From Candidatus Oxydemutatoraceae bacterium (GTDB lineage: Bacteria; Pseudomonadota; Gammaproteobacteria; Poriferisulfidales; Oxydemutatoraceae): 64,000 bases of DNA. Position 1 is the stretch's first letter; each line of letters begins with the position of its first letter. Positions 19,269 to 39,879 of the stretch are shown here, one piece after another. The notes below the pieces were generated by a model, which was given only the letters and a program-made list of their open reading frames with translations, had not been told where the DNA came from and did not search any database. A program made the position numbers and the translations under genes. The DNA lies in contig CBDCOZ010000003.1 of the NCBI GenBank assembly GCA_965220085.1, positions 160,001 through 224,000 of the forward strand, written 5' to 3'.

Positions 19269-20960
19269 ATGTTTGCTAATTTTTTCTCTAAAGAGAGCAT
19301 CGTCGCGCCGCCGGGTTTTAATCGCTGGCGGGTGCCGCCGGCGTCCATGGGCATCCATCTGTGCATCGGTTCTGTTTATGCGTGGAGCATCTACAATCCG
19401 GCGCTGGTAAAAGCGCTGGGGGTGGCGGTCAGTGCGCCGAACGATTGGACGCTCAATGAGGTCGTTTGGATTTTCACCGTATCGATCGTTTCTCTCGGTT
19501 TGGCCGCCGCGTTTGCCGGTCGCTGGCTGGAAGAAGTCGGCCCGCGCACCGTCGGCGTTGTCGCCGCGGTTTGTTGGGGCGGCGGCTATCTTGTCGGCAG
19601 CGCCGGAATCGCATTGCATCAGTTGTGGCTGGTGTATTTGGGCTATGGCGTGATCGGCGGCATCGGCCTTGGCTTGGGCTATGTGTCCCCGGTCAGCACG
19701 CTCATCCGCTGGTTTCCCGACCGCCGCGGCATGGCGACCGGCATGGCCATCATGGGCTTTGGCGGCGGCGCGATGCTGGCGACTCCGCTCAAAGAATATT
19801 TCCTGCAAACCTTTTACAAAGCGCCCGAATACTTGGGCCGCGTCGCCGACCTTGACATCATCACCAAAGAGGGACATCGCTTTGTCGAGGCGGGCGGCGA
19901 GTTGAAGGAGGTCGTCGTCGTCGGTGTTAACGAGGTCGCCAACATGGTGGTGCCGGGAGAGCCCGGCGCGTACTTGTTGGGTTCGGGTTCTGTCGGCGCG
20001 TGGGAGACGTTTTTGTCGATGGGCTTGATTTATTTTGTCGTGATGATAATTGCCGCGCTGAGTTATCGCATACCCGCCAAAGACTGGCGCCCCGAAGGGT
20101 GGATGCCGCCAAGCGATGATGTCGCCAAGAAAAAGATGATGACGCGGGGTTCGGTGGACATAGATCAGGCTTTGAAAACACCGCAGTTTTACCAACTTTG
20201 GATAGTCCTGTGCTTCAATGTGACCGCCGGTATCGGCGTCATCGGCGTAGCAAAAACGATGATGACCGAGATTTTCGGTTCCACATTGCCGTCGCTGGTC
20301 GATAGCGCGTTTGCCGCCGCCTATGTGTTGATGATCAGCGTGTTCAATATGGTCGGGCGGATTATCTGGGCGAGTTCGTCGGATTACATAGGGCGTAGAA
20401 ATACGTATTGGATATTTTTTGTCGGCGGGATTATTCTGTACTTGTCTATTCCGTGGACGGCGCAACAGGTCAGCATCACGCCGGCGGTTTTCTATCTGGT
20501 TCTCTTTTATGCCGCGACCATGATTATCTTTACATTCTATGGCGGCGGCTTTGCGACCATCCCCGCCTACCTCGCCGATGTCTTCGGCACCCACCATGTC
20601 GGCGGCATCCACGGCAGGTTGCTGACCGCCTGGAGCACGGCGGGGGTTTTGGGGCCGCTGGCCATCACCAGTTTGCGCCAGAATTCCTTGAACGAGGCGA
20701 TTCACGATTTGGCGCAACAGGTTGATCCGCAAAGGTTTTATCAGGCTTTTGGCGCCCGTGTCGGCGAGTTGGAGTTACTGATTGAGAATAAAGTGGTAAC
20801 ATTGGCTAAACTGCTGGAAATTGCTCCGCCGGGTACGGTTGATCCGACGCCGAGTTTATATAATACGACGATGTACCTGATGGCGTTTTTATTGTTTTTG
20901 GCGTTGATCTCCAATGCGTTTATGCGCCCGGTGGCAAGCAAACATCTGATGCAGAATTAA
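19269..20960 (+). CDS. OFA-family MFS transporter
   Basis: HLCIGSVYAWS, WFPDRRGMATGMAIMGFGGG, YGGGFATIPAYLAD. Confidence 0.93.
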   Translation: MFANFFSKESIVAPPGFNRWRVPPASMGIHLCIGSVYAWSIYNPALVKALGVAVSAPNDWTLNEVVWIFTVSIVSLGLAAAFAGRWLEEVGPRTVGVVAAVCWGGGYLVGSAGIALHQLWLVYLGYGVIGGIGLGLGYVSPVSTLIRWFPDRRGMATGMAIMGFGGGAMLATPLKEYFLQTFYKAPEYLGRVADLDIITKEGHRFVEAGGELKEVVVVGVNEVANMVVPGEPGAYLLGSGSVGAWETFLSMGLIYFVVMIIAALSYRIPAKDWRPEGWMPPSDDVAKKKMMTRGSVDIDQALKTPQFYQLWIVLCFNVTAGIGVIGVAKTMMTEIFGSTLPSLVDSAFAAAYVLMISVFNMVGRIIWASSSDYIGRRNTYWIFFVGGIILYLSIPWTAQQVSITPAVFYLVLFYAATMIIFTFYGGGFATIPAYLADVFGTHHVGGIHGRLLTAWSTAGVLGPLAITSLRQNSLNEAIHDLAQQVDPQRFYQAFGARVGELELLIENKVVTLAKLLEIAPPGTVDPTPSLYNTTMYLMAFLLFLALISNAFMRPVASKHLMQN

Positions 20961-20996
20961 ATTTTAGACTTTCCGAACAGGAAAAGGAGGGAAATT

Positions 20997-22508
20997 ATGG
21001 CAGCAACAGCCGAAGTGATCGAATTGAAAACTGGCATCACTCAATTCATCAAAGAACCCAAGAAGATGCTGATTGGCGGCGAGTGGGTCGGCGCAAAGTC
21101 TGGCAAGACTTTTGACGTCGTGAACCCCGCTACCGAAGAGGTCGTCGCCAAAGTCGCGGAAGGCGATGCGGCGGATGTGGATGCGGCGGTGAAAGCCGCG
21201 CGCAAAGCATTTGAGAGCGGCCCTTGGCCGAGCATGAGCCCGTCCGATCGCGGTCGTTTGATTCATAGAATCGGCGACCGGATACTGGAGCGTCTGGAGG
21301 AATTTGCCGAACTCGAGTCGCTGGACAACGGTAAGCCCATTACCATTGCCCGCGTCGCCGATGTTCCGCTATCTGCCGACATGTTCCACTACATGAGCGG
21401 ATGGACGACTAAAATGCACGGTCAGACCATCCCGATTTCGGTGTTGTACACGCCGGGCGCGCAATATCATTCGTATACGCGTCCCGAGCCTGTCGGCGTC
21501 GTCGGGCAGATCATTCCGTGGAACTTCCCGCTGTTGATGGCGGCGTGGAAGCTGGCGCCGGCTCTGGCGACCGGTTGCACGGTGGTGCTCAAAGTCGCGG
21601 AGGAAACTCCGTTGTCGGCGCTGTTGCTCGGCGAAGTGCTGCAGGAAGTCGGCTTGCCCGAGGGCGTGGTCAATATCGTGACCGGCTTTGGCGAGACGGC
21701 GGGCGCGGCGGTGGCTTCTCATCCGGATGTGGACAAAGTCGCTTTCACCGGTTCTACCGAAGTGGGGCGCTTGATCGTCAAGGCGGCGGCAAAGGATTTG
21801 CGCAAAGTCTCTCTGGAGTTGGGCGGCAAATCGCCGAACATCGTGTTGGGGGATGCCGATCTTGAGACCGCAATCCCCGGCGCGGCGAATGCTATCTTCT
21901 TTAATCACGGGCAGTGTTGCGCGGCCGGTTCGCGTTTGTATGCGGACAAGAAAATCTTTGACAAGGTGGTCGAAGGCGTGGCCGATGCGGCATCCAAGAT
22001 CAAGGTCGGTCCCGGGCTGAACCCCGATACCGAAATGGGCCCGATGGTTTCCAAGGTGCAGCACGATCGCGTGTCGGGCTATCTGGATTCCGGTCTGTCC
22101 GAGGGCGCGAAAGCCGCCAGCGGAGGCGGGAAGAAAGCCGGCGACGGCTACTTCATCGAGCCGACTGTTTTGGTGGACACCAACCCCGACATGAAAGTGG
22201 TTCGCGAGGAGATATTCGGGCCGGTGGTCACGGCGTCTCCGTGTGACGGCTTTGATGACAAGTTGGTGGAGGAAGCCAACGCGACCATCTATGGTCTGGC
22301 AGCCGGAATCTGGACGAATGATCTTGCCAAGGCGCATTCGCTTGCGGCAAAAATTCGTTCCGGCACCGTGTGGGTCAACTGCTACAACATCTTTGATTCG
22401 GCATTGCCGTTCGGCGGCTATAAGCAGTCGGGCTGGGGCCGCGAGATGGGCGAAGCGGTGCTTGAGAACTACACCGAGACCAAAGCGGTTACGATCAATC
22501 TGAGCTGA
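20997..22508 (+). CDS. Aldehyde dehydrogenase
   Basis: IIPWNFP, FTGSTEVG, LELGGKSP, GQCC, EEIFGPV, PFGGYKQSG. Confidence 0.97.
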   Translation: MAATAEVIELKTGITQFIKEPKKMLIGGEWVGAKSGKTFDVVNPATEEVVAKVAEGDAADVDAAVKAARKAFESGPWPSMSPSDRGRLIHRIGDRILERLEEFAELESLDNGKPITIARVADVPLSADMFHYMSGWTTKMHGQTIPISVLYTPGAQYHSYTRPEPVGVVGQIIPWNFPLLMAAWKLAPALATGCTVVLKVAEETPLSALLLGEVLQEVGLPEGVVNIVTGFGETAGAAVASHPDVDKVAFTGSTEVGRLIVKAAAKDLRKVSLELGGKSPNIVLGDADLETAIPGAANAIFFNHGQCCAAGSRLYADKKIFDKVVEGVADAASKIKVGPGLNPDTEMGPMVSKVQHDRVSGYLDSGLSEGAKAASGGGKKAGDGYFIEPTVLVDTNPDMKVVREEIFGPVVTASPCDGFDDKLVEEANATIYGLAAGIWTNDLAKAHSLAAKIRSGTVWVNCYNIFDSALPFGGYKQSGWGREMGEAVLENYTETKAVTINLS

Positions 22509-22547
22509 TTGCCCGAGGCGGGGGGCGCATCGTTGCGCAAGCGATAC

Positions 22548-22610
22548 AGGCACACCGCACTGCGCGGTGTGCCGCCCTTTCGCAGTCGCTCCTTTGATCG
22601 GGAGCGGCGA
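22548..22610 (+). terminator. GC-rich hairpins after the aldehyde dehydrogenase
   Basis: GGCACACCGC...GCGGTGTGCC inverted repeat, followed by GTCGCTCC...GGAGCGGC; weak U-tract. Confidence 0.4.
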
Positions 22611-22685
22611 AGGCGCCCGCCCGCACCGGCGCGATCAAGCGGAGTGACAGACCGTTAACGGGCGATTCCCCGAATACTTGCGACC

Positions 22686-24626
22686 ATGACCGACAGCGAT
22701 ATCAAACAACAGCGCTACCCCGCGCCCGCGGACCCGAACGCGCTGGCAGACGCGCAGACCTATCAACGCATGTATCAAAAGTCTGTCGAAGACCCGGAGG
22801 CGTTCTGGGCCGAGCAGGCGCGCGCGTTTCTGGACTGGAAGCGCGAATGGGACAGCGTGCTGGAGTGGGATTACGACAAGGCGATCATCCGCTGGTTTGA
22901 TGGCGGGCGGCTGAATGTCTCCTACAATTGTCTGGACCGGCATTTGGACAAGCACGGCGATCGCGCGGCCATTATCTGGGAGGGCGATGAGCCGTCGCAA
23001 AGCAAAACGTTTACCTATCGCGAGTTGCACGAGATGGTGTGCCGGTTTGCCAATGTGCTCAAAGCGCAGGGGGTTAAAAAAGGCGATCGGGTTTGCATAT
23101 ACATGCCGATGATCGTCGAGGCGACGGTGGCGATGCTGGCGTGCGCGCGTATCGGCGCCATTCACTCGGTGGTGTTCGGCGGCTTTTCTCCGACGGCGCT
23201 GCGTGATCGCATCTTGGATTCCGATTGCACGATGCTCATCACCGCCGATGAGGGGCGGCGCGGCGGCAAGATTGTGCCGCTGAAGGCCAACTCCGATATC
23301 GCCGCCGCCGAGTGCCCGAATGTCCGCGCGGTAATCGTCGTGCGCAATACCGGCGCGGATGTGGCTATGCGCGAAGGGCGCGATGAGTGGTATCACGAGG
23401 CGGTCGCGGCGGCGAGCGCGGAGTGCGAAGCCGAGCCGATGGAGGCCGAAGACCCGCTGTTTATTCTCTACACTTCCGGTTCTACCGGCACGCCCAAGGG
23501 GGTGTTGCATACGATGGGGGGGTATTTGTTGTATGCGGCCATCACGCATCGCTACAGTTTTGATTACCGCGATGGCGAGGTGTATTGGTGTACCGCCGAT
23601 GTCGGCTGGATTACCGGGCATTCGTATATCGTGTACGGGCCGTTGGCGAACGCCGCAACGACTGTGATGTTTGAAGGGGTGCCGACCTACCCCGACGCAT
23701 CGCGCTGTTGGCAAGTGATAGACAAGCACAAGGTCAATGTCTTTTACACCGCCCCGACCGCCATTCGCGCGCTTATGCGGCTGGGGGATGCGCCGGTCAA
23801 GAAGGCCGACCGCGGCAGCTTGCGCGTCATTGCGACCGTGGGCGAGCCTATTAACCCCGAAGCCTGGGAATGGTATTACCGCGTGGTCGGCGAACGGCGT
23901 TGTCCGGTCATCGACACATGGTGGCAGACCGAAACCGGCGGGCATATGATCACGCCGTTGCCCTATGCGACCGATTTGAAACCCGGTTCTGCGGCGCGCC
24001 CGTTCTTCGGCATCTGTCCTGCCATCGTTGACGATGCGGGCAATGAGTTGGACGGCGCGTGCGAAGACAAGTTGGTGATTACCCGCCCGTGGCCCGGGCA
24101 GATGCGCACGGTGTATGGCAACCATCAGCGGTTTATAGATACCTACTTCAAGACCTTCCCCGGCAAATACTTTACCGGCGACGGCTGCCGCCGCGATGAG
24201 GACGGCTACTACTGGATTACCGGACGCGTCGATGACATTATTAATGTGTCGGGGCATCGCATCGGCACGGCCGAAGTCGAAAGCGCGATGGTGTTGCACG
24301 AAAAAGTCGCCGAAGTGGCGGTGGTCGGCTACCCGCACGAAGTAAAGGGGCAAGGCATATACGCGTACGTCACTTTGATGCAGGAAGTCGAGGGCAGCGA
24401 ACCCTTGCGTGAAGAACTGTTGGCACTGGTCAAGCAGGAAATCGGTGCCATCGCGATTCCGGATGTGCTGCAATGGGCACCAGACTTGCCCAAGACGCGC
24501 TCGGGCAAAATCATGCGACGGATCCTGCGCAAAATCGCATGCGGTGAGACCGATGAGATTGGCGACACTTCAACACTCGCCGACCCCACCGTCGTTGAGG
24601 CGATCATCAAAGGCAAAGCCGGCTAG
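22686..24626 (+). CDS. acs: Acetyl-CoA synthetase
   Basis: [41 protein letters not shown]. Confidence 0.98.
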
Positions 24627-24648
24627 CTTGGCTGATGTAACAAGCAGA

Positions 24649-25506
24649 ATGGCAGGCGAAATAAAGTTCGTTGCAATTGATGTTGAGACGGCAAACTCTG
24701 ATCTCAGTTCAATTTGTCAGGTTGGTATTGCCACTTTTGGCGAGTCCGGACTGATTGACGAGTGGCGCAGTCTTGTGAATCCGGGAGTTGATTTTGGCCC
24801 TGATCCTGCTGGGCATGGTATCAAGAAAGAAGATGTTATTGACAGTCCGACCTTCCGTGAAGTTTCAAAAATTATCGGTAGAAAGGTTAATGGACAAGTA
24901 TGTATCGCGCATAACGCTTCTTTTGATAAATCTGCGTTAGAACAGGCTGCTAAAAAGGATAATCTTGAGCCGCTGAATCCAATTTGGCTTTGTTCTGCTG
25001 AGGTGGCTCGCAGAACTTGGAGCGATGTATCTGAGAAAGGGTATAAACTCAAAGATGTGTGTCAGAAGATCGGATATGAATTTGAGCATCACGATGCATT
25101 AGAGGATGCAAAAGCGGCAGGGCATGTCATGATAGCAGCTCTTGAAGAATCTGGTATCAGTCTAGAGGAGTGGCTAGAACAGCCTATTAATTCATCATCG
25201 CGACCGAAGGGAAAGAATATTGAAAGAAGCGGCAATCCTAACGGGAAGTTGCACGGCGAGGTTATTGTATTTACTGGGAAGCTAAGATCATATGAGAAAG
25301 CAGAAGCAGCAGATTTAGCTGCGTCTTTGGGATGCGATGTACAGCTTAGAGTGACAAAGAAAACCACGCTTTTAGTTGTCAAGGATAAAGACTCAGGTAA
25401 GCCTTCAAGGAATCATCAAAGATCTAAGGAGCTAATCGCGAAAGGGGAAAGAATTAAAGTCGTAGATGAGGATGACTTTGTCAAATTGATAAAAGACAAC
25501 TCTTAG
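24649..25506 (+). CDS. DEDDh 3'-5' exonuclease (DnaQ-like) with C-terminal BRCT
   Basis: AIDVET, AHNASFD, HHDALEDA; VFTGKL...VTKKTTLLV. Confidence 0.9.
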   Translation: MAGEIKFVAIDVETANSDLSSICQVGIATFGESGLIDEWRSLVNPGVDFGPDPAGHGIKKEDVIDSPTFREVSKIIGRKVNGQVCIAHNASFDKSALEQAAKKDNLEPLNPIWLCSAEVARRTWSDVSEKGYKLKDVCQKIGYEFEHHDALEDAKAAGHVMIAALEESGISLEEWLEQPINSSSRPKGKNIERSGNPNGKLHGEVIVFTGKLRSYEKAEAADLAASLGCDVQLRVTKKTTLLVVKDKDSGKPSRNHQRSKELIAKGERIKVVDEDDFVKLIKDNS

Positions 25507-25557
25507 TTTACACCTGCTTTTTATTAGCTTATTGAGTCGGATTGCTTAGCTGTATTT

Positions 25558-26256
25558 ATGTATATTATGGAGAATTCGACCAAACATATACGCCGTTCGC
25601 ATGACAAGCCCATTCGGGAAAACCTCTCGTGGGATGAGCAGTGGAAAGCGGCGGACAAAGGGTTGATCGGTTGCTGGGAGACTGGGCGGAAACTTGTCCG
25701 AACGCATCCGGAGTTAGCGGAAAAGGCTAAGAACAGCGAGCTTCCCGCTTTGAATTGGAAGGGCGGGTCGGATACGAAGTATTGCAAGCCGGACTACTTG
25801 GCGCGCTGGCAGGGGTTGCGCGGCGAACCGATGGATATTGATGCGACAAGCGAAAGAGAGCTTGTTTGTTCGCAGACGGGAGTCGCGGTCGTGTTTGCTG
25901 TGGGCGCCGATGCGCGGTATGACCGGCGGCAGTTACAGAACGAATGGCAGATTGGGAAGGAGTTGGCGGAGAAGAGCCCGCAGTTGGCAGAGAGGGCCAA
26001 GCGAGGGGAGTTGCTTGTTTTGCCCAAGCCGGGCAGTACCGCGGGCAACCTCAGCATCGGCGAAAGCATACGATATGGTTCGCTGTTTTATTTGGCGCAA
26101 TGGCAGGGATTGCGCGGCGAAGATTTGAATATTGACACATCGGTCGCGCGCGAGGTTGTTTGTTCAAGAACCGGGATGACGACGATATTTGCCGGCGCTG
26201 CCGAAGGGTTTGAGATGCGGCGCAAAGAGCTTGAGAAGCATCGGAAGCCCGCATAG
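25558..26256 (+). CDS. Hypothetical protein made of two ~100-aa internal repeats
   Basis: PELAEKAK...YLARWQGLRGE...CSQTG repeated as PQLAERAK...YLAQWQGLRGE...CSRTG. Confidence 0.8.
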   Translation: MYIMENSTKHIRRSHDKPIRENLSWDEQWKAADKGLIGCWETGRKLVRTHPELAEKAKNSELPALNWKGGSDTKYCKPDYLARWQGLRGEPMDIDATSERELVCSQTGVAVVFAVGADARYDRRQLQNEWQIGKELAEKSPQLAERAKRGELLVLPKPGSTAGNLSIGESIRYGSLFYLAQWQGLRGEDLNIDTSVAREVVCSRTGMTTIFAGAAEGFEMRRKELEKHRKPA

Positions 26257-26293
26257 TTTTCATTGATGTGACAGGCAAGATGTGACAGGCAAG

Positions 26294-27163
26294 ATGGCAA
26301 GCAAAGTGAAATTTGTCGCGATTGGCGTTGAGACGGTAAACTCTGACCTCAGTTCAATCTGTCAGGTCGGCATTGCCACTTTTGGCAAGTCCGGACTGAT
26401 TGACGAGTGGCGCAGTCTTGTGAATCCGAGAACCTATTTTGGCGAAATGAACCCTGGCCTGCGCGGAGTCAGAAAAGCAGATCTTATGAAGAGTCCGGCA
26501 TTTTATGAAATCTCAGAAATTATTAGTGAGAAGGCGAATGGCCGGGTATGTGTCTACCATTCTCAAGTGCATTTTGAGCAGAAGGCGTTAGAACAGGCTA
26601 TTGAAAAGGATGATCTTGAGCCGCTGAATCTAATTTGGCTTAATTCTACTGAGGTGGCTCGCAGAACTTGGCGCGATGTGGCTAAGGCAGGGTATGGAAT
26701 CGTCAATGTGTGCAAGAAGATTGGGTATGAACTTGAGCATCGCGATGCATTGGAAGATGCAAAAGCGGCGGGGCATATCATGATGGCGGCTCTTGAAGAA
26801 TCCGGTATCAGTCTGGAGGACTGGCTAATATTGACAAAGCAACCTAATTCATTGTTGCACCCGAGGGGAAAGAGTATCAAAAGAAACGGCAATTTCAAAG
26901 GGAAGTTGCGCGGCGAGGTTCTTGTGTTTGCCGGGAGGCTCGGCGCATATAGGAGAGCGCAAGCGGCGGATTTGATTGCGTATTTGGGATGCGATGTGCG
27001 GCCCAAAGTGACACAGAAAACCACGCTTTTGGTTGTCGGGGATCAAGGCGCTGGCAAGCCTTTGAGGAACTATCAAGAGGCTAAAGAGCGAATCAAGGAA
27101 GGGCAAAGAATTAAAATCATAGATGAGGATGGCTTTGTCAAATTGATAAGAGACAACGCTTAG
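26294..27163 (+). CDS. Second exonuclease-BRCT paralog with first catalytic Asp changed to Gly
   Basis: AIGVET instead of AIDVET; collinear with 24649-25506. Confidence 0.85.
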   Translation: MASKVKFVAIGVETVNSDLSSICQVGIATFGKSGLIDEWRSLVNPRTYFGEMNPGLRGVRKADLMKSPAFYEISEIISEKANGRVCVYHSQVHFEQKALEQAIEKDDLEPLNLIWLNSTEVARRTWRDVAKAGYGIVNVCKKIGYELEHRDALEDAKAAGHIMMAALEESGISLEDWLILTKQPNSLLHPRGKSIKRNGNFKGKLRGEVLVFAGRLGAYRRAQAADLIAYLGCDVRPKVTQKTTLLVVGDQGAGKPLRNYQEAKERIKEGQRIKIIDEDGFVKLIRDNA

Positions 27164-27224
27164 TTGGCGCCCGCTTTTTGTTGGCTTATTGAGTCAGACA
27201 GCTTAGCTGTATTTACCGTATATT

Positions 27225-27854
27225 ATGGGCATTATGAAAACGAATGACCCAGAGTTAGTGCGCCGTTTCCACACTGGGAGGTTAAGCGATCGCTCAGTAG
27301 ATGAGCTTATCGGTTTATCCGCAGGCATTATCGCAGATGGTGTTGTTAATCAGAAAGAAGCCGAATTCTTGCATAACTGGTTAGCAAAGTATGCCAGTGT
27401 GGCGAATGAAAACTCAATGACTCGCAATCTTTTAACTCGCATTAGGGAAGTGCTTTCCGATGGTGTGCTGGATGATGAAGAGTCACGCGAACTGCTTGAG
27501 GTGTTGAAAAGCTTTGCCGGCGTGGGTGAGGTTGGGGAGGTTCCGCTTGCGACAGATTTGCCTTTGGATAATCCCCCGCCAAGAATGGTGGCTGACGGTA
27601 AGCGATTTTGTTTTACTGGTTTATTCTTGTTCGGGAAACGCGATAAGTGTGAACAGCACACTAAAGATTCTGGCGGAACAGCAGGAAGCCTGACGCAGAA
27701 AACGGATTATTTGGTTATCGGGTATTATGCGGCCGAATCATGGAAACATACAAGCTATGGCAATAAAATCTTGCGAGCTTTAGAGATGAGAGAGAAGGGT
27801 GTTCCCATTTATATTGTTAGTGAGAAGCATTGGATTAAGGAGTGTCATAGTTGA
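27225..27854 (+). CDS. BRCT-domain protein (phage/island type)
   Basis: GIIADGVVNQKEAEFL N-domain; FCFTG...TQKTDYLVIG...WKHTSYGNKI. Confidence 0.85.
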   Translation: MGIMKTNDPELVRRFHTGRLSDRSVDELIGLSAGIIADGVVNQKEAEFLHNWLAKYASVANENSMTRNLLTRIREVLSDGVLDDEESRELLEVLKSFAGVGEVGEVPLATDLPLDNPPPRMVADGKRFCFTGLFLFGKRDKCEQHTKDSGGTAGSLTQKTDYLVIGYYAAESWKHTSYGNKILRALEMREKGVPIYIVSEKHWIKECHS

Positions 27855-28019
27855 AGGGTGGTGTAAGAAAAGCCACACCATAGCCCGAATAGAAAGCAGT
27901 CCAGCAAAAAGCGTTTGCACTATAGTTGCTAGTGTCAGCATGGCTAAGTAAATGGTATGATTCCGTAAAACCTGCGCCTGCCTGTCCGCCGGATGATTTA
28001 TAAGATTGTAGGTGCGCAA

Positions 28020-28105
28020 CGCTAGGGATGCGCACTTAGTTTTCGCATCAGGATCTCAAGCGAGATTATATGCATGTCGTTTCCTACGGGAAATTCGTCA
28101 TTGAC
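28020..28105 (-). repeat. Degenerate copy of the 3' end of the AAA/DUF4143 ATPase gene (native 40992-41075)
   Basis: CTAGGGATGCGCACTTAGTTTTCGCAT...GCGAGATTA...TTCCTACGGGAAATTCGTCAT matches 40993 onward. Confidence 0.75.
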
Positions 28106-28257
28106 CTGCTATAGACAATATGATGATTCCATAGTGAAATCTGGCGACTGGATGCGCAAGCTACCAGACAACTTCCACATAGGTAGGGTAGAGCAAGGTT
28201 ATATGGTATTCTTTGGAGGTGAGTCATGAAAGCATTACCGAGAGCACATCGAGAGTA

Positions 28258-28320
28258 CATAAAGAGACGCCACCCTAGAGGTGGCGTCGGGCCGAGGATA
28301 CTATCCTCGGGGTGGTTAAT
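28258..28320 (-). ncRNA. Putative ~63-nt small RNA (hairpin + intrinsic terminator), divergent from the NYN gene
   Basis: Stems CCGAGGAT/ATCCTCGG and GACGCCACC/GGTGGCGTC followed by a U-rich tail; preceded by a consensus promoter; second conserved copy at 39290-39348. Confidence 0.65.
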
Positions 28321-28327
28321 GCTTGGC

Positions 28328-28356
28328 AGTTTACTGATATCCAGCATAGGTGTCAA
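28328..28356 (-). promoter_or_regulatory. Sigma70 promoter TTGACA-N17-TAAACT
   Basis: -35 at 28351-28356, -10 at 28328-28333, 17-bp spacing; conserved in the second copy. Confidence 0.75.
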
Positions 28357-28433
28357 GCCCCCCGCAGACCCAAGGTTCGTAGGGCATTGCTTGAGTGCTA
28401 TAGTCTGTCAAAATTGCTAATCTGAGAGATAAT

Positions 28434-29051
28434 ATGACTAAAGTAATCAGTTATATAGATGGTTTCAACCTGTACTATGGCTTACGAGAAAAAGGCTGGA
28501 GGAAATACTACTGGTTGGATGTAGCCAAAGTGTCTAAGGCCATTCTCAAGCAGGACCAAGCCCTGCAGCATTGCTACTATTTCACAGCCCACATTAGAAC
28601 TAATAAACATGGTCAGAACAGGCACAGGCAAACCCTTTGGCTGGATGCACTGAAAACTCGCCCTGATATCACATGTCGCTTTGGGCAATATCTAACCAAA
28701 ACCGTACAATGCAATAGTTGCAAAGCTACATGGAGGCAACCCGAAGAAAAGATGACTGATGTTAATATCGCTACGCAACTCATCGTTGATGCCTATGAAG
28801 GAAACTATGACACAGCACTGATTGTGTCTGGTGACAGTGACTTAACGCCTCCTATTGAGTATATCCGCAAAAGGTTCCCAGACAAGAAGATAGTTGTTGC
28901 GTTCCCACCTAGACGTCACTCAAAACAGCTTAAAAAGGCAGCCAGTAGATATATCATTTTGGGTGAAGACAAACTGCGTAACGGCCTTTTACCAGACAAA
29001 ATTACCGTCGCAAGCGGTCATGTGCTAAAGCGTCCTGATTCTTGGCGCTAG
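28434..29051 (+). CDS. NYN-domain (LabA/DUF88, PIN-like) ribonuclease
   Basis: YIDGFNLYY, EEKMTDVNIA, IVSGDSDL, VAFPP. Confidence 0.92.
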   Translation: MTKVISYIDGFNLYYGLREKGWRKYYWLDVAKVSKAILKQDQALQHCYYFTAHIRTNKHGQNRHRQTLWLDALKTRPDITCRFGQYLTKTVQCNSCKATWRQPEEKMTDVNIATQLIVDAYEGNYDTALIVSGDSDLTPPIEYIRKRFPDKKIVVAFPPRRHSKQLKKAASRYIILGEDKLRNGLLPDKITVASGHVLKRPDSWR

Positions 29052-29105
29052 ATGCCATGCGCCAACATATAACACAATCGCATCAACTGACTGTCAGTGC
29101 GCAGT

Positions 29106-29304
29106 GCTAGGGGTGGGCAGTAATCTTTTGCATCAGCTTCTCAAGCGAGATTACATGTGTGTTCCTCCTGCGGGGAATGCGTCATCGCCTCCGCAGACGA
29201 TGTATTTTTGCATCACTTTGACATCATCGCAAATCCGATTGAGAACTGTCGGCGCTGGTCAAGCAAGCGATTGGCGCTATCGCCATTGCGGATGTGTTGC
29301 AATG
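29106..29304. repeat. Chimeric repeat: ATPase 3' fragment (minus) fused to an acs 3' fragment (plus)
   Basis: 29106-29250 resembles 40992-41140 and 29251-29304 resembles 24423-24475; same junction at ~32010-32237 and ~35150-35474. Confidence 0.85.
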
Positions 29305-29461
29305 CGCCCATGACACACAGCATTTGCCCCATGTATAAATATGTCATGGTATCATGCGCCATACTGCCAAGGTGCTAAGATTAGGTTCGCCTATCCGCTC
29401 TGGCATGGAATGAATCAATCAACGGGATTCACGCGCATCATAATTAATCGGAGAAAATGCA

Positions 29462-29818
29462 ATGCAAAACTTTTTGATGACTTTGTCTCTTGCGCTTGTT
29501 TTTAGCGTGATGTTTCTGCCGTCTGTTTCGTATGCTCAAGGCGCTGACTGCTCGCCCGTGCTCCCTCGGTGCGAGGCTCTGGGGGCCAAAGCGCAAAAAC
29601 TCATGAAATCTTTGCCTGAGCCGGAGGACATGATTGCAGTGCTTCAAGCGCAAGATTGCATGAGCAGGCGCGTAGCAGAAGTAAGCCGCGGATGTGCCAA
29701 GGAATATCGTGCCGCGGGGAACTCTGTGTGCGTTAGTCTTTTGGAAGAACAAGCGAGAACTGCCGAGGAAGAAGCCAAACGATTCGAGAAATCTTGGCGT
29801 GATCGCCGCTCCCTATGA
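29462..29818 (+). CDS. Secreted Cys-containing hypothetical protein
   Basis: Signal peptide ending SYA|Q; RBS GGAG; an internal fragment is duplicated at ~34723-34835. Confidence 0.75.
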   Translation: MQNFLMTLSLALVFSVMFLPSVSYAQGADCSPVLPRCEALGAKAQKLMKSLPEPEDMIAVLQAQDCMSRRVAEVSRGCAKEYRAAGNSVCVSLLEEQARTAEEEAKRFEKSWRDRRSL

Positions 29819-29879
29819 TTGTCCAAAATTGTGAATTACCCTCAATTAAACAACGTAAGCAGCGACTGAAAAAAACCAA

Positions 29880-30851
29880 ATGAAAAAAATTTCTGCGCTG
29901 ATAGCGGCTCTTTTTGTTGCGCTTGCTGTGCAAACCGCACAAGCAGAAAACTGTGACTTTCGCTTTATGTGCTCTGCAAAGCATTTTGCAAAGGAGGCCG
30001 CAAATTTTGTTATGGGGCATGGGGGAATCAGTCTTCTGGAAGCGTTGTCTGACACATCGAAAGGCGCTCACTTTTGCGGAGGAGAGGGAGAGCCTCCGGA
30101 AGGTTGCAGCCTTGATGACGCTTTGGAGCATTACAAAGCTAATCCCGAAGACACTGCTTTTCTAGGAGAGTTTGTCGGCCAAGTGCAAGTTCAAAGAGAA
30201 GACGGAAAAAATTATGGTTATACGGGTTTTATCGCAAGAACAGAAAAATGCGCCGGAAACAATCTTATTTTTACAAATGCTCACGCTCTGTTTAATCGTA
30301 AAACAGGGGAGACTTATGCAAGAAATGCCAAGTTTTGTCTCAAGGGAAAATGTTATGAGTTGGATCTTGATGCCATTTCTAAAATGGAAGAACAAGGACT
30401 GCTTGGCAAAAGAAAGTTCGCGTCCGGAGAAAGATATTTGGATTATATTGCTCTGCCTGTCAAAGGCAAAAAGCCCGCTCCTCAAAGGGTCGCAAAGCTT
30501 GCTCCTTTTAAGAAAGGTTCTTATCTTAATAAGGGTGTGCTATCCGCGGGATATCATATTAAAAACAAAAAAATCCATTCCGTGCGCGGGTGCAAAATTA
30601 CGCATACGCATGCCCATCCATATCCTCTGACTCTTTATCATAATTGCCCCGGCACAAACGGTTTTTCAGGCTCTCCTCTTATAAGCCATAAAGGCGAAAT
30701 TGTGGCTTTTCATGCTGCTAGCGGAAAGAAGGCGAAGGGACAATCCTATGATCCTCGCAATAAGATCTTTAATCGGGGCGGTGGCATTTCACAAACGCTC
30801 ATTGATAATTTAAACCGATATTGCTCTGACTTTTTGGCAAGTAGCGACTGA
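29880..30851 (+). CDS. Secreted trypsin-like serine protease, paralog 1 (long form)
   Basis: Signal peptide; triad motifs TNAH, LDY, GFSGSP. Confidence 0.85.
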   Translation: MKKISALIAALFVALAVQTAQAENCDFRFMCSAKHFAKEAANFVMGHGGISLLEALSDTSKGAHFCGGEGEPPEGCSLDDALEHYKANPEDTAFLGEFVGQVQVQREDGKNYGYTGFIARTEKCAGNNLIFTNAHALFNRKTGETYARNAKFCLKGKCYELDLDAISKMEEQGLLGKRKFASGERYLDYIALPVKGKKPAPQRVAKLAPFKKGSYLNKGVLSAGYHIKNKKIHSVRGCKITHTHAHPYPLTLYHNCPGTNGFSGSPLISHKGEIVAFHAASGKKAKGQSYDPRNKIFNRGGGISQTLIDNLNRYCSDFLASSD

Positions 30852-30861
30852 AAAAAACCAA

Positions 30862-31821
30862 ATGAAAAAAATTTCTGCGCTTATAGCGGCTCTTTTTGTT
30901 GCGCTTGTTGCGCAAACCGCACAAGCAGAAAACTGTGATTTTCGCTTTATGTGCTCTGCAAAGCATTTTGCAAAGGAGGCCGCAAACTTTGTTATGGAAC
31001 ACGGAGGAATCAGTCTTCTGGAAGCGCTGTCCGGCACGTCAAAAGGCGCTTACTTTTGCGGAGGAGAGGGAGAGCCTCCGAAGGGTTGCAGTCTTGATGA
31101 GGCGTTAGAGTATTACAAAGCCAGCACAGAGGATGCTGCTTTTTTAGAAGAGTTTGTCGGTCAATTGGAAACTCAAAAAAAAGACGGAGTAAGTTATGCC
31201 GCCACAGGTTTTATTGTAAGAACGGAAACTTGCGCCGGAAACAATCTTATTTTTACGAACTCTCATGCTTTCTTTAACCGCAAAACAGGGGAGCTTGTCG
31301 CAAAAAATTCAAAGTTCTGTCTCAAAGGAACATGTTATGAGTTGGATCTTGATGCCATTTCTAAAATGGAAAAACAGGGGCTACTTGGCAGAAAACAGAT
31401 AACCCGTAACAAAGAAAGAGCCTTTGACTATATTGTTCTTCCTATTAAAGGCAAAAAAAGGCCTGCCCCTCAAAGGGTGGCAACGCTTATTCCTTTTGAA
31501 AAATCTAATCATTGGAATGTGGGCATACGGTTTGCAGGGTATCATGTTGATAATAAAAAAATCTATTCCCTTCGGCAGTGCAAGATTAAACATATCATGG
31601 CTGAAAATCCTCTTGCTCTTTTTCATAATTGCCCGGGTCAAGGGGGTTCTTCAGGCGCTCCTCTTATAAACTCTGACAATGAAGTTGTGGCGTTTCATGC
31701 TTCCGGAAAGGGGAAGAACGGACAAGCCTATGACCCGCATAATGACAGCTTTAATATGGGCGGCGCTATTTCACAAGAGTTCATTGATAATTTAAACCGG
31801 TATTGCTTTGACTCAAATTGA
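30862..31821 (+). CDS. Secreted trypsin-like serine protease, paralog 2 (long form)
   Basis: TNSH, FDY, GSSGAP; tandem duplicate of paralog 1. Confidence 0.85.
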   Translation: MKKISALIAALFVALVAQTAQAENCDFRFMCSAKHFAKEAANFVMEHGGISLLEALSGTSKGAYFCGGEGEPPKGCSLDEALEYYKASTEDAAFLEEFVGQLETQKKDGVSYAATGFIVRTETCAGNNLIFTNSHAFFNRKTGELVAKNSKFCLKGTCYELDLDAISKMEKQGLLGRKQITRNKERAFDYIVLPIKGKKRPAPQRVATLIPFEKSNHWNVGIRFAGYHVDNKKIYSLRQCKIKHIMAENPLALFHNCPGQGGSSGAPLINSDNEVVAFHASGKGKNGQAYDPHNDSFNMGGAISQEFIDNLNRYCFDSN

Positions 31822-32029
31822 TACGGTTCTAAAAACTCAAGTCTTATGCTTTTTCAGCCGACAGAGCTTTGGTCGCAGGACTCATAGTTGCCTCCTTTGC
31901 GGCGGAAGCAACTATTTCATGGAGACCTCTGATGCCGTAGCTGATGTGTTGATATTGCATGTCGGCTTTTGTTGAAGCCAAGAATCCAGAATGTTTCCGG
32001 CATCATTCACCCGATTGAGAAAACTGCCA

Positions 32030-32237
32030 GCACTGGTCAAGCAAGCGATTGGCGCTATCGCCATTGCGGATGTGTTGCAATGGATGCCGGACTTGCCCAA
32101 GACGCGCTCGGGCAAAATCATGCGGCGGATTCTGCGCAAGATTGCGTACGGTGAGACCGATGCAATCGGCAACACCTCGACACTCGCAGACCCACCGTCG
32201 TTGAGGCAATCATCAAAGACAAAGCCGACTAGCTTGG
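32030..32237 (+). pseudogene. Duplicated acs 3' end
   Basis: [43 protein letters not shown]..., 1-bp deletion near the end. Confidence 0.9.
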
Positions 32238-33575
32238 ACAACGTTTGCCCTCTCCATACCATTCATTAAGGTATTTTAAAGGGACCTCCGTATCCCAATA
32301 TTCAATTATCACATCGGCCATTTTTTCAGATAATGTTCCACAGCGGGCATTATAAATAGAAGCTTCTTTATTTCGACGCGAATCAAGTCGGCCTTCAATC
32401 TTTGACTTTATCTTACCGGGCACCCCATCGGGTAGTTCAGAGATAATCTCCATAATCTCCTCAATATGCCCTGGTTTTAACTCTCCAAAATTGCAACCAT
32501 CTAGACTTGATCGCTTATTAGTGCGTTCCTTTATTCTTGCCTTACCATCATCGTTGCTAGTGTCCTGTGATGAACAAGATGCGCCTTGTAATTGGGCCTT
32601 AGAGAGATTTGCGCCTTGTGATTGGGCGTAAGAGAGATTTGCCCCTTGTAATTGGGCGTAAGAGAGATTTGCGCCTTGTAATTGGGCGGAATCGAGATTT
32701 GCCCCTTGTAATTGGGCGCCAAGGAGATCTGCACCTTGTAATTTTGCCCCATGGAGATCTGCTTCGTTCAGGTGGGCCTGTTGAAAGTCGGCACACCTAA
32801 ATGAGCGGCTATTATATGTCTGATTTGCTAACTGAAGCTGAGGCACGCTAATTATTCCTGGCGTAAATATTCCTGCAATCGGTTTAAAAATTCCTTCATC
32901 TGCATAAGCAGTACAGTCTCCCTGATTTATTTGGTAATAGTTGAATCCTGCGAATACAACAAGCACCGTTTGCAATAACACAAATATCCATGTGACTTTG
33001 TCCTTCCAGAAGGAATACGGTAAATCGTAATAGCGTGTTGTAATGAGAGGCAGGGGTATAAGAATACCGTTCCATAACACAAACCCGAAATTTTGGTAGT
33101 CAATAATCCTGACAAACAAGAAAAGGATAGTTAGCATTGGCAGTATAATCAGTGTGAATGCGCTAAACCGTTGAGCAAACCACTTTCCTCTCCCTTCCGA
33201 AAGCATTACGGAAAAGTCAAAAACAAAAGGTGCCGATGGCATCGCTTTCCTATTTCTTTGTCGTTCCCACTCAAGTTTCTTTTTGTGTTGATTCAAGTTG
33301 AAGCATAAATATAGCTGTAGTCCGATAAGTATCAGAGCGCCAAGCGTATAAAAAACTAAAAATGGGATTGTGGTGCCAGCAAATGGGATAGTGATACCGT
33401 TGCCAGTTAAATCTAACAAATCCGCATCCGATGTGGATAGGGTTGCGAACATGATAAAAAGACAAAGCCCGATAAAGGACATGTAGAGGTGTCTGTTAGT
33501 GGCTACAGATGCATTTAGAGCCTCTGTGAGCTCATAAGGTGGTGTGCTTGAGGTTTGCATTTTTGTGGATATCAA
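32229..33575 (-). CDS. Membrane-anchored pentapeptide-repeat protein
   Basis: N-terminal TM helices; AQLQGANLS repeats. Confidence 0.88.
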
Positions 33576-33869
33576 AATGTATGCTCATCTATATTGGTAA
33601 ATGCCATAGCCTAGCAGGCTCATGTCCATTTAATCATATCCTAAATAATGAGGTTTATAACTTTGGATTGCGCCCGCACAATAGGCAACTACAAAGGCAT
33701 AACTAGCAATATATTGGCCTATATATGACTCTGTATCCTGAGGATAATAAAGAAATCTTTCGTTTTCCTAAGCACAGTTTGCACAGGTTATAACGCTTAT
33801 TATAATTCCGAAAAGGGAGAGAGTGTATGATACCATGACACAATATTTGCCCCATGTGTCCAATATGCC

Positions 33870-34736
33870 ATGGCATCATACAGTCACTTGAAAAAAACAT
33901 TTTTAACCCTGCTCTTGCTGGGGGTATCGCCACTATTGTCGGCTGCTTACTTTTGCGGAGGCGAAGGAGAGCCTCCGGCGGGTTGTGGCTTGGAGGACGC
34001 TTTGAGGCACTACAAAGCCAGCCCGGAAAATGCTGATTTTTTAGGTGAGTCTGTTGGTCTTGTAAGGACTAGAAGAACAGACGGGGAAAATTATGGCGCT
34101 ACGGGTTTTATCGTAAGAACAGAAAATTGCACTGGGAACGATCTTATTTTTACAAATGCTCATAGCTTCTTTGATTGTAAAACGGGGAAGCTTTATGCGA
34201 AGAGCTCAAAGTTTTGTCTTAATGGAAAATGTTATAAGTTGGATCTTGATGCCATCCCCACAATGGACAGAAAGGGAATGCTTGGTGCAAAAAAGTTGAC
34301 TTCTAAGGAAAGATCTTTGGACTATATCGTCGTTCCTATCAAAGGCAAAAAAAGACCCGCTCCTAAAGCGGTGGCAACGCTTGCTGATTTTCACAATGCC
34401 TATAACTTTAATAAGCCTATGATGTTCGCAGGGTATCACATTGACAAGAAAGATGTTTACTTTGTTCAGGGATGTAAGATCACCCATAACCTTGAAGAGA
34501 ATCTTGATGCCATTTTTCATAATTGCCCAGGTAAGGTAGGTTTTTCCGGAGGGCCTCTTATAAACAGGAGAATTATTCACGGCCGTGAACATCATAAAAT
34601 TGTGGCGTTTCATGCTAGTGATGGAAAGGGAAAGAATGGACAGCCCTACAACCCATATGATAAGAGATTCAATAGAGGCGGTGCCATTTCACAAGATCTC
34701 ATTGATAATCTAAACTCATATTGCTCTGAGGGCTAA
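33870..34736 (+). CDS. Secreted trypsin-like serine protease, paralog 3 (short form; start may be TTG 33888)
   Basis: TNAH, LDY, GFSGGP; lacks the ENCDFRFM...SKG segment. Confidence 0.82.
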   Translation: MASYSHLKKTFLTLLLLGVSPLLSAAYFCGGEGEPPAGCGLEDALRHYKASPENADFLGESVGLVRTRRTDGENYGATGFIVRTENCTGNDLIFTNAHSFFDCKTGKLYAKSSKFCLNGKCYKLDLDAIPTMDRKGMLGAKKLTSKERSLDYIVVPIKGKKRPAPKAVATLADFHNAYNFNKPMMFAGYHIDKKDVYFVQGCKITHNLEENLDAIFHNCPGKVGFSGGPLINRRIIHGREHHKIVAFHASDGKGKNGQPYNPYDKRFNRGGAISQDLIDNLNSYCSEG

Positions 34737-34840
34737 AGCGCAAAAATTAAAATTTCTGCCTGGGCCGGAGGACATGTTTCTTGGATGGCTTCAAGCGCAG
34801 GATTGTATAAGCAGGCGCACAGCAGAAGTAAGCCGCTGTT

Positions 34841-35120
34841 TGATGCCATGACGTATCGGACACATGGGCAAATGTTGTGTCATGGCGCTTGAAGCCTCAG
34901 TCTGTAGTGTGGTCGTTGGGTATCAAGCCATACCAGACACTTTATCCGACGATTATGGAATGTCCGCCACATTCGGCCCGCAACAAACCCTCTTCAAATT
35001 CCACAAACTCTTCCCGAAGGGCGCGGTCAAAGCGTTCATTGAACGCATTCATCATTCAAGCGAGGGCGGATTTCGGCGCGGACATTCTTGTCTTTCCGAA
35101 AAGACGATTCGTAATGTTTG
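34841..35120 (+). mobile_element. MITE-like relic: left end plus decayed IS1595-type transposase N-terminus
   Basis: TGATGCCATGAC.. end, then MSATFGPQQTLFKFHKLFPKGAVKAFIERI; homologous to 56107-56350 and 61130-61360. Confidence 0.55.
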
Positions 35121-35264
35121 AAAGAAAAGTGTTCATGTTCCGGTGGCACCCTTCACGAGCAATCATATGTGTGTTCCTCCTGCGGGGAATTCGTCATCGC
35201 CTCTGCAGACGATGTATTTTTGCATCACTCCGACATCATCGCAAATCCGGTTGAGAAAACTGCC

Positions 35265-35474
35265 GGCGTTGGTCAAGCAAGCGATTGGCGCTATCGCCAT
35301 TGCGGATGTGTCGCAATGGATGCCGGACTTGCCCAAGACGCGCTCGGGCAAAATCATGCGGCGGATTCTGTGCAAGATCGCGTACGGTGAGACCGATGAG
35401 ATCGGCGATACCTCAACACTCGCCGACCGCACCGTCGTTGAAGCAATCATCAAAGGCAAAGCCGACTAGCTTGG
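35265..35474 (+). pseudogene. Duplicated acs 3' end, in frame to the stop
   Basis: ...[45 protein letters not shown]. Confidence 0.9.
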
Positions 35475-37212
35475 TGGACAAGGGTTGCCCTCTTTTTTAT
35501 ACCATTTATTAAGGTATTCTGAAGGGACCTCCGTATCCCAATACTGAATTATCACATTGGCCATTTCTTTAGATAATGTTCCACAGCGGGCATATCCAAT
35601 AGAAGCTTTTTCATTTTGATGCAAATTAAGTTGGTCTTCAATCTTTGACTTTATCTCATCAGGCACCCCATCGGGTAGTTCAGAGATAATCTCCTCAATA
35701 TGTTTTGGTTTTAACTCTCCAAAATCGCAACCATATAGACTTGATGGTTTATCAATGCGCTCCCTTATTCTTGCTTTACCATCATTGTAGATAGTGCGCT
35801 CCCATGAGATAGTGCGCTCCCATGAACAAGATGCGCCTTGTAATTGGGCCCAAGCAAGACTTACACCTTGTAATTGGGCGTCATAGAGGTTTGCGCCTTG
35901 TAATTGGGCGTCATAGAGCTCTGCGCCTTGTAATCTGGCCCCATGGAGATTTGCGCCTTGTAATTGGGCTTCATAGAGAGCTGAGCCTTGTAGTTTGGCC
36001 TTAGAGAGATCTGCGCCTTGTAATTGGACGGTAAAGAGAGCTGAGCCTTGCAATTGGGCGTCAGAGAAATCTGCGCCTTGTGATTGGGCGTCAGAGAAAT
36101 CTGCGCCTTGTAATTGGGCGTTAGAGAAATCTGCGCCTTGTGATTGGGCGTTAGAGAAATCTGCGCCTTGTAATTGGGCGTTAGAGAAATCTGCGCCTTG
36201 TGATTGGGCGTTAGAGAAATCTGCGCCTTGTAATTGGGCATCAGAGAGCTTTGCGCCTTGCAATTGGGCATCTTCTAATTTGGCCTTAGAGAGCTTTGCG
36301 CCTTGTAATTGGGCACCTTCTAATTTGGCCTTAGAGAGATTTGCTTTGTTCAGGTGAGCCTGTTGAAAGTTGGCACACCTAAATGAGCGGCCATTATATG
36401 CCTGATTTCTGCTGGCTTTATCCTCTGCTAACTGAGGCACGCTAATTATTCCTGGCGTAAACATTCCTTTTACCCTTGGTATAACAGTTTCTTTTATCCT
36501 TGGTATAACAGTTTCTTTTGTCCTTGGTACAGATGCAGAAGTTTCTTCAGGTGCATACGCAGAACAATCTCCCTGATAGATTGGGAGGTAGAAGGATATT
36601 GAGAGTGCAGGAAGTATAATAACTGGCGGTAATATAAAAAATATCCATGCGAATATGTCCTTCCAAAAAGAATACAGCAACTTGTGATAGCGGTATGCAG
36701 TATACAGAGAGAATACAAAAAAGGCACCGTTCCATGACACAAGCCAGGGCCCCTTGATAATCGATAATCCTGATAAGCAAAAAAAGGATAGTCAGCATTG
36801 GCAATGTTAATAATATGAATGCGTTAAATCGTTGGGCAGATAGCCTTTCTTTCCCTTCCGGAAGTATTATGGAAAAGTCAAAAACAAAAGGTATTGATGG
36901 TTCCCTCCCATTCTTTTCCAGCTTTTCTTTGTGTTGGTTCAAGTGGAAGCATAAATATCGTTGTAATGTGATGAGTATCGGAGCAACAAGCGTATAAAGA
37001 ACTAAAAATGGGATTGTAGTACCGGCAAATGGGATAGTGATACCGTTGCCAACCAAATCTAACAAATCCGCATCTGATGTGGATAGGGTTGCGGTCATAG
37101 TAAGAAGACAAATCCCGACGAAGAGTATATAGAGGCGTCTGTTAGTAGTTATAGATCCTCTTAGAGTCTCTGCGGAATCATCAGATGGTGTGTGCGGTTT
37201 TGTGGACATCAA
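35466..37212 (-). pseudogene. Second pentapeptide-repeat membrane protein, frameshifted near 36750, with expanded repeats
   Basis: ORFs 36547-37212 and 35466-36740 together align to 32229-33575; near-perfect 30-bp DNA repeats at ~35840-36340. Confidence 0.85.
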
Positions 37213-39871: not shown

Positions 39872-39879
39872 TGACCAAA

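Follow-up and report, generated by a model that had tools for sequence, protein, structure and literature searches.

A conserved small RNA paired with an NYN nuclease gene and carried alone by phages: a candidate type III-like RNA-antitoxin module

We describe a small RNA gene and the NYN nuclease gene that stands beside it in a 64,000-nt stretch of the genome of a Candidatus Oxydemutatoraceae bacterium (GCA_965220085.1, contig CBDCOZ010000003.1, positions 160,001 to 224,000 of the forward strand), here called the window, in whose coordinates features are given. The RNA gene occupies 28258..28324 on the minus strand, where R1, a covariance model of the RNA family introduced below, scores 73.1 bits (E 3e-18). 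A sigma70-type promoter, TTGACA-N17-TAAACT at 28356-28328 on the same strand, precedes it, with the -35 box TTGACA at 28356-28351, a 17-nt spacer and the -10 box TAAACT at 28333-28328; it scores 10/12 in a promoter scan that lists 12 promoter-like sites in the 3.5-kb region, compared to 5.1 +/- 2.4 in shuffled sequence. The predicted RNA starts at its 5' end with a single-stranded AUUAACCAC and continues with hairpin 1, which a CCC linker joins to the terminator hairpin. Hairpin 1 (28292-28310, minus strand) is a perfect 8-bp inverted repeat just 3' of the -10 box, CCGAGGAT-AGT-ATCCTCGG in the DNA and CCGAGGAU-AGU-AUCCUCGG in the RNA, and its apex, G-AUAGYAU-C, is conserved. The second hairpin (GACGCCACC/GGUGGCGUC, 28266-28288, minus strand) has 10 pairs and runs into UCUUUAU (TCTTTAT in the DNA), and thus has the GC-rich stem and U-run of an intrinsic (Rho-independent) terminator. 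With transcription starting ~7 nt past the -10 box and ending in the U-tract, a transcript of ~61 nt is predicted, from ~28320 to ~28260. A 76-nt RNA folds into exactly hairpin 1 plus the terminator at -30.7 kcal/mol, with a z-score of -5.12 and 0/200 shuffles equally stable.

We find no open reading frame (ORF) with a Pfam match that overlaps the RNA gene when the ORFs of the window are compared with Pfam, and no Rfam 15 match on the RNA at E up to 1 in positions 20000-36000 of the window and 18 loci. Four other identities, an integron attC site, a solitary CRISPR repeat, a mimic of a tRNA anticodon arm and a lambda boxB element, were dropped, as the loop and stem patterns do not match those known for such elements.

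Back-to-back with the RNA gene, on the plus strand and 109 nt from it, begins the gene for a 205-aa NYN (LabA-like, PIN-like) nuclease (28434-29051), the one NYN gene in this genome. The protein matches PF01936 (NYN) over residues 7-176 at 54.3 bits, against a cut-off of 24.2, and the PADLOC profile of HEC-09 (Hma-embedded candidate 09) from end to end (1-205 on 1-203/203, E 5.9e-88). An AlphaFold2 model made with 34 homologues has a mean predicted local distance difference test (pLDDT) value of 92.3; its best fold matches are VPA0982 (2QIP, LabA-like; E 6.6e-11) and the NYN domain of MARF1 (5YAA and 6FDL; E 5e-5 to 4e-4), with template-modeling (TM) scores of 0.67-0.69 on the target and sequence identities of 11-22%, while a search of the PDB by sequence gives nothing beyond a weak match to 2QIP. 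The active-site acids D9, E105, D109, D134 and D136 are retained in 80-81/81 sequences, as is an invariant CxxC pair (C93, C96) in an inserted beta-hairpin by which the window protein differs from VPA0982 and MARF1. The protein has a PIN-like/NYN fold with a conserved acidic pocket and is a putative metal-dependent ribonuclease. To our knowledge, no RNA partner has been described for VPA0982 or for the NYN domain of MARF1, and the literature that we searched holds no description of one for NYN. The promoter, hairpin and terminator of the RNA, its lack of an ORF and the divergent NYN gene had all been proposed in a sequence-only reading of this DNA, and each is found in its proposed place.

NYN relatives were fetched by protein similarity alone (back-translated search, one genome per species). 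This gives at least 446 confirmed relatives, of which the best 80, with 40-65% identity, were analysed; their loci span Pseudomonadota, Acidobacteriota, Bacteroidota, Chloroflexota, Planctomycetota, Verrucomicrobiota, Nitrospirota and others. Inspection by reading of 230 nt upstream of each of the 80 genes reveals a near-universal promoter-hairpin-terminator unit, and an ad hoc hairpin filter picks the RNA in 71/80 loci. An alignment of 80 hairpin-filter sequences (A3) was made into the covariance model R1, which, run on both strands of the window and of loci L011-L102 (387 kb), yields 89 matches and detects the RNA in 77 of the 80 NYN loci. The three misses are L056 and L081, where merely 129 and 14 nt of upstream DNA are at hand, and L061, with no match in 997 nt. 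Two R1 matches are present in 6/80 loci, directly tandem in four of these, and a second copy in L034 is seen by the filter only. The RNA is also present beside the NYN gene of a Thermus plasmid (55% identical), and eight metagenome control loci that share the hairpin word alone give no R1 match.

The pairing also holds when the search starts from the RNA. R1 finds in the whole source genome the same two copies as in the window, the second of which is described below, and the true matches among 150 other genomes sampled from the class are two variant copies, both in one genome (G145) and each beside an NYN gene 36-39% identical to that of the window. A DNA search of 18 other genomes of the family does not find the RNA unit. 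The strict word CACCCCGAGGATNNNATCCTCGGNCC has 0 matches in a collection of genome contigs and is too narrow a probe because the hairpin flanks vary. A scan of metagenomes with the hairpin word returns 12 loci, four true copies and eight chance or coding matches; copies L013 and L021 adjoin a divergent NYN gene 42% identical to ours, and copies L018 and L011 lie in phage-like DNA without NYN. We regard the pairing of this RNA with NYN as nearly certain.

Several lines of evidence show that selection acts on the RNA. Standard pairs fill 94.6% of cells in A3, compared to 74.8% in column shuffles and 38-48% with the 3' partner slid, a percentage inflated by the prior choice of the A3 sequences with a hairpin filter; 14/18 pairs vary on both sides. 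Across the 80 sequences, the hairpin 1 helix is 98.6% paired with 6/7 pairs varying on both sides, and the terminator helix is 98.8% paired with 7/9 pairs covarying. RNAalifold independently predicts both helices. A check free of the filter comes from 52 viral matches to a pattern that leaves the hairpin 1 stem unspecified: these represent 33 distinct sequences, in which 78% of stem positions pair in register, versus 26-44% when slid. The basal pair of the terminator is G.U in 53/80 sequences, and further U.G pairs occur elsewhere; because such pairs become A.C on the opposite strand, the fold is selected on the strand that runs from promoter to terminator. Unpaired bases are conserved across phyla as well, namely the 5' UAAC/UAGC, the apex G-AUAGYAU-C, with the variants GAGAGUAUC and GUGAGUARC, the C-rich linker and GACG...CGU at the terminator base, and these hint at contact with a protein. 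Most relatives have terminator tails of the UUUCUUUUU type. A sigma70-type promoter (at least 9/12) lies immediately upstream of 60/75 RNAs in a family alignment, compared to 6% of shuffles; the 75 comprise 73 NYN-linked copies together with the orphan of the window and a second copy from one tandem pair. These data establish the RNA as a conserved, structured and strand-specific partner of this NYN clade.

The same data bear on the idea that the palindrome is a DNA operator between divergent promoters, with the resemblance among loci due to chance or to a shared promoter architecture. The perfect 8-bp inverted repeat of hairpin 1, directly past the -10 box, speaks for an operator, whereas G.U pairs fit a single strand, stem sequences change with pairing kept, and in same-strand, convergent and phage settings, where no divergent promoter is present, the position of the element with respect to its own promoter and terminator stays the same. 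We consider an operator very improbable. The sequence-only reading had named a mere operator as what would overturn its proposal, and the strand-specific G.U pairs and covarying stems speak against it; the conserved promoter-hairpin-terminator unit, whose absence beside NYN homologues it had also named as a refutation, is present, and the covariance model and Rfam comparison that it had suggested give, respectively, the 77 loci above and no Rfam 15 family.

The RNA and NYN genes are divergent in 74/80 loci, with a median gap to the NYN start of 61 nt (range 37-234). Two loci, L048 and L076, have the order promoter-RNA-terminator-NYN on one strand, and in L091 the RNA is convergent and directly beyond the NYN stop codon. 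Because the layout varies among loci, the link between RNA and NYN is not positional. This matters for a reading in which the RNA controls NYN expression, either as a cis-antisense RNA or through a strong promoter that occludes or collides with incoming transcription, in a type I-like manner or by transcriptional interference. The gap of mostly ~61 nt is filled by the RNA's own promoter, a promoter for NYN is seen in few loci (16/74), and the genes upstream are often co-oriented with NYN, so the NYN mRNA may begin in upstream DNA and include sequence complementary to the RNA. An extended -10 that the sequence-only reading had assigned to the NYN gene (TGcTATAGT; TGCTATAGT; 28396-28404, plus strand) is indeed there as sequence, and its standing as the NYN promoter is left unsupported both by the promoter scan, which does not list it because its -35 is weak, and by the low count of such sites among relatives. 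Against expression control stands the conservation itself, since a cis-antisense RNA needs no conserved fold or sequence, whereas this one has covarying stems and conserves bases of its loop, linker and stems from phylum to phylum. The two loci with the RNA on the NYN strand, the gaps of up to 234 nt and the different stem sequence of the phage copies point the same way, and predicted duplexes between the RNA and the NYN start region are not specific to the cognate pair (-16.7 versus -15.9 kcal/mol, rank 5.5/12, p 0.086). On balance, we judge control of NYN expression unlikely.

The genomic surroundings of the relatives reveal no conserved protein neighbour: 111/150 flanking ORFs have no relative among the flanks of the other loci, in agreement with an earlier statement, from the window alone, that no protein antitoxin is adjacent. 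The largest groups of flanking ORFs (13 and 11 members) come from Hma-like loci that are close relatives of one another and encode a NOV_C helicase and a DUF1156 methylase, and in L030 the module lies between these two genes. Elsewhere it is found between cas3 and cas5d/csd1 of type I-C CRISPR-Cas systems (the Desulfobacteraceae-labelled L040, and also L044, L047 and L055) and next to a ResIII helicase (L021). Since the flanks are not conserved, the conserved unit is NYN plus RNA, which moves among defence loci. HEC-09 is an NYN/MARF1-like single-gene candidate embedded in Hma systems (bioRxiv 10.1101/2024.01.29.577857, as far as the accessible part of the preprint goes). The window protein resembles it in its full-profile match, NYN/MARF1-like fold and conserved aspartates, and relatives lie inside Hma-like loci. 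The window gene differs in having a conserved RNA partner and in lying outside Hma, its neighbours being exonuclease-BRCT genes, gene-tail remnants and protease genes; the preprint, in the part available, treats HEC-09 as a single gene.

These surroundings also weigh on whether the pair is a toxin or defence system at all, or instead a housekeeping or mobile-element RNA-processing pair whose phage copies are ordinary terminators of shared ancestry. Such a role would suit the plain intrinsic terminator that forms the second hairpin and the lack of defence by the sole HEC-09 tested, going by the accessible preprint text. It does not suit the sporadic spread, with the module absent in 18 other genomes of the family and present in 1/150 other genomes sampled from the class, its embedding in defence systems and, in the window, in a mosaic island, or the conserved first hairpin and 5' motif, which termination does not need. 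We find a housekeeping role distinctly improbable.

Two observations on individual relatives stand apart from these comparisons. In L013 the module directly adjoins a tRNA-Sec gene (2848-2931, plus strand; Rfam RF01852, 56.4 bits), a possible insertion site. Two E. coli plasmids of 3.4 and 4.3 kb (L197 and L199) carry a distant NYN gene, one of them together with a VbhA-family antitoxin gene.

Copies of the RNA without the nuclease are found in viral DNA. The pattern GATAGYATC-N8-9-GACGCC-N9-30-GGCGTYT, which reaches 21/80 of the NYN loci, matches 52 loci in IMG/VR, 49 of which are R1 matches with scores of up to 76.7 bits, and just one of the 52 (L141) has an NYN gene within 2.5 kb. Among cultured phages, a BLAST search with a viral copy has a sole match, in the Dolichospermum phage Dfl-JY45, where the RNA scores 54.6 bits. 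The viral copies adjoin genes for small terminase, an Rz-like spanin, endolysin, a virion structural protein, endonuclease VII and DarB-like antirestriction/methylase proteins, with no neighbour common to them. Just 4/27 have their own sigma70 promoter; they frequently begin at the stop codon of the preceding gene, with the stop inside the UAAC/UAGC motif. In the bacterial genomes searched, then, the RNA is almost always with NYN, and in the viral contigs searched it is almost always without. One viral copy (L112) lies a short way 5' of a large DarB-like antirestriction/methyltransferase gene (2612-5038, plus strand), and therefore beside a known kind of anti-defence gene.

The phage copies admit a reading in which the RNA is what NYN recognises, as a substrate, target mark or activator, with phage transcripts that end in the element cut by NYN; on the host side, the bacterial copy would serve as bait, act as an autoregulatory sponge or be processed by NYN into a working RNA. 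Recognition of stem-loops or minihelices is known for NYN and PIN-like RNases, Regnase-1 and PRORP among them, which lends this some plausibility, as does the frequent location of the phage element at gene 3' ends, with the stop codon within UAAC/UAGC. However, phages should lose the mark of a nuclease, and 33 distinct phage sequences keep the fold and conserved bases in unrelated gene contexts. Nor is there host use of the motif away from NYN in the source genome or the 150 other genomes sampled. We consider a recognition target or activator rather unlikely.

What these observations fit best, we infer, is an RNA that inhibits NYN. Retention by phages agrees with an inhibitor, since a nuclease target should be lost, not kept; the strong promoter and terminator of the RNA would fit, by analogy, the excess-antitoxin logic of type III systems, and the ToxIN-like gene order in two loci would likewise fit an inhibitor. 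Much as in type III systems, the RNA would act as an antitoxin or pseudo-substrate that binds NYN directly and keeps it inactive. Upon infection, host transcription would collapse, the RNA would decay and the nuclease would be freed, and phages that carry the RNA alone would deploy it as a decoy, so that the nuclease stays shut. We see the chances of a type III-like module of RNA antitoxin and NYN toxin, with phage copies acting as decoys, as evenly balanced. A more far-reaching version is somewhat less probable and is offered tentatively: NYN/HEC-09 and its 61-nt RNA may form a new RNA-antitoxin family, in which a pseudo-substrate hairpin holds a PIN-like RNase, and many phage lineages may have captured the antitoxin gene as a widespread anti-defence decoy.

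Comparison with known systems places the module near, but outside, the classical type III families. Like ToxIN, CptIN and TenpIN (PMC3401426, PMC5086642, as described in the available parts of these papers), it combines a nuclease gene with a neighbouring non-coding RNA that has a strong promoter and an intrinsic terminator, in a defence-linked setting; the RNA is adjacent to the putative toxin gene in 77/80 loci, and L048 and L076 share the promoter-RNA-terminator-toxin order. The toxin fold is NYN instead of ToxN/AbiQ-like. Because the module lacks the defining layout, the repeat array and the toxin fold of ToxIN, CptIN and TenpIN, we place it outside these families and infer that it works like a type III, AvcID-like toxin-antitoxin system. 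In AvcID, the toxin is not ToxN and is inhibited directly by a single small RNA, of which an excess is made and which disappears when phages shut off host transcription (PMC10511110, in the part available). The likeness lies in the single non-repeat RNA and in the mechanism, which is the one proposed here for the NYN module; AvcID differs, as far as that part of the paper goes, in its dCTP/dCMP deaminase toxin, its ~170-300-nt RNA and the absence of a terminator between the genes, compared to an RNase-like NYN and a 61-nt terminator-ended RNA. A type I system is a poor fit, as there is no cognate-specific duplex with the NYN start, and the protein has a 205-aa enzyme fold as opposed to a small membrane toxin. 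For the phage copies, the nearest precedent is the pseudo-ToxI of the Pectobacterium phage PhiTE, reportedly described by Blower and colleagues in 2012 as a phage-borne decoy RNA antitoxin that arose in one phage lineage under laboratory selection. In each case the phage has an RNA that resembles the one of the host and has no toxin gene with it; the present copies, at least 33 distinct natural sequences, come from diverse viral contigs, and their decoy role is a proposal.

A number of results weigh against an RNA-antitoxin module with phage decoys. The same-strand, RNA-before-toxin order of ToxIN, CptIN and TenpIN is not what we see in the window and 74/80 loci, which are divergent, and a single hairpin-plus-terminator unit takes the place of the 2-5 tandem repeats that, in the available parts of the ToxIN-family papers, are processed by the toxin. 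The scarcity of promoter-like sites on the NYN strand, which also lack a consistent placement among relatives, means that read-through antisense to the RNA gene is possible. The selection behind A3 flatters its pairing, as noted above. Beyond the close relatives the association fades: distant viral NYN proteins (26-46% identical) have the RNA in just 1/35 loci, and two small E. coli plasmids with NYN proteins 33-34% identical to ours, out of 152 matching plasmid records, have it in 0/2 with the R1 filters off, nor does a promoter/terminator scan of the same two plasmids show an analogous unit. In IMG/VR, the pattern for the GUGAGUARC class, which reaches 10/80 NYN loci, gives three chance matches, 0 R1 matches and 0 with NYN. 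Finally, one HEC-09 representative, on a clone that included its putative native promoter, conferred no protection in the reported phage tests; the terms 'non-coding', 'ncRNA' and 'small RNA' are all absent from the accessible preprint text (bioRxiv 10.1101/2024.01.29.577857).

The HEC-09 result gains another meaning if the RNA is needed by HEC-09 or holds it in check: HEC-09 is listed as a single-gene defence candidate, showed no activity and would then deserve a new test, both with its RNA and without it. Should the RNA-antitoxin reading be true, the short list of RNA-antitoxin systems would gain a toxin of the PIN-like/NYN type and a new family of RNA, one that Rfam 15 lacks, the RNA-only phage copies would be a ready natural set of candidate RNA anti-defence genes, and an arms race between an RNase and an RNA decoy would be directly testable. 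R1 lets annotators find the module.

The window holds a second RNA gene, without NYN, that the sequence-only reading had missed: the whole promoter-to-terminator block recurs at 39287-39384 on the minus strand, with the RNA at 39287-39352 (R1 66.3 bits), the -35 box at 39384-39379 and the -10 box at 39361-39356. This block, with the -35 box at one end and the terminator at the other, is 85% identical to the first copy, and the similarity stops sharply at both ends; its terminator stem differs by a change from A-U to G-C and has one G.U pair. The copy ends ~90 nt upstream of a HEC-05/GmrSD-like gene on the same strand (37423-39198; HEC-05 E 8e-229). A general link between the RNA and HEC-05 was rejected: the RNA is found in 0/6 other HEC-05 homologue loci, taken from 400 genomes sampled from the class, and the second copy is therefore read as an orphan, not as a second pairing. 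Such an orphan would add to the antitoxin supply or may be a recombination relic that now drives the HEC-05 gene.

Direct repeats flank the RNA-NYN module (28004-28077 and 29089-29162, 77% identical), and it had been proposed from them that the module is a repeat-bounded transferable cassette. The repeats are real copies of a gene end. The left one belongs to a 3'-end remnant of a DUF4143/AAA_14 ATPase gene (28004..28102, minus strand; tblastn 28102-28028, 60% identity over 25 aa), and the right one to a remnant of the same 3' end (29089..29255, minus strand) that abuts a remnant of acs (29243-29368, plus strand). A third piece of the ATPase 3' end is at 35178-35264, and an intact ATPase gene of this type is at 40993-42237 on the minus strand. 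Tails of acs recur at 29243-29368, 32018-32226 and 35254-35463, two of them abutting an ATPase tail, and the genuine acs end is at 24626; overall, the ~70 last acs codons and the ~30 last ATPase codons each recur three times. The region from 24.6 to 42 kb, downstream of acs, is a mosaic island that grew through repeated insertion or recombination where acs and the ATPase gene meet, in a pattern that looks like repeated single-crossover insertion of circularised segments. Because the module elsewhere sits in Hma, CRISPR-Cas I-C and restriction loci, the bracketing repeats are insertion scars of this acs/ATPase island, not the ends of the module.

Other genes of the island are repeated as well. 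At lower coordinates than the RNA gene lie two paralogous DEDDh exonuclease-BRCT genes with DNA blocks 78-85% identical and a third BRCT-like gene (24700-25506, 26282-27163 and 27225-27854), which match the PADLOC candidate PDC-S48. Beyond the NYN gene, a small secreted-looking ORF (29462-29818) precedes three paralogous Trypsin_2 genes with signal-peptide-like N termini (29880-30851, 30862-31821 and 33870-34736), two of them in tandem and with 5' ends ~90% identical. Two paralogous genes for pentapeptide-repeat membrane proteins, at 32229-33575 and 35466-37212, both on the minus strand, contain 30-nt tandem repeats (e.g., 32550-32789), and the second is apparently split into two ORFs. At 39647-40200, past the orphan RNA copy, a MazE/AbrB-like antitoxin gene (39647-39871) is followed, in place of a toxin gene, by two direct repeats of ~190 nt that were seen by eye.

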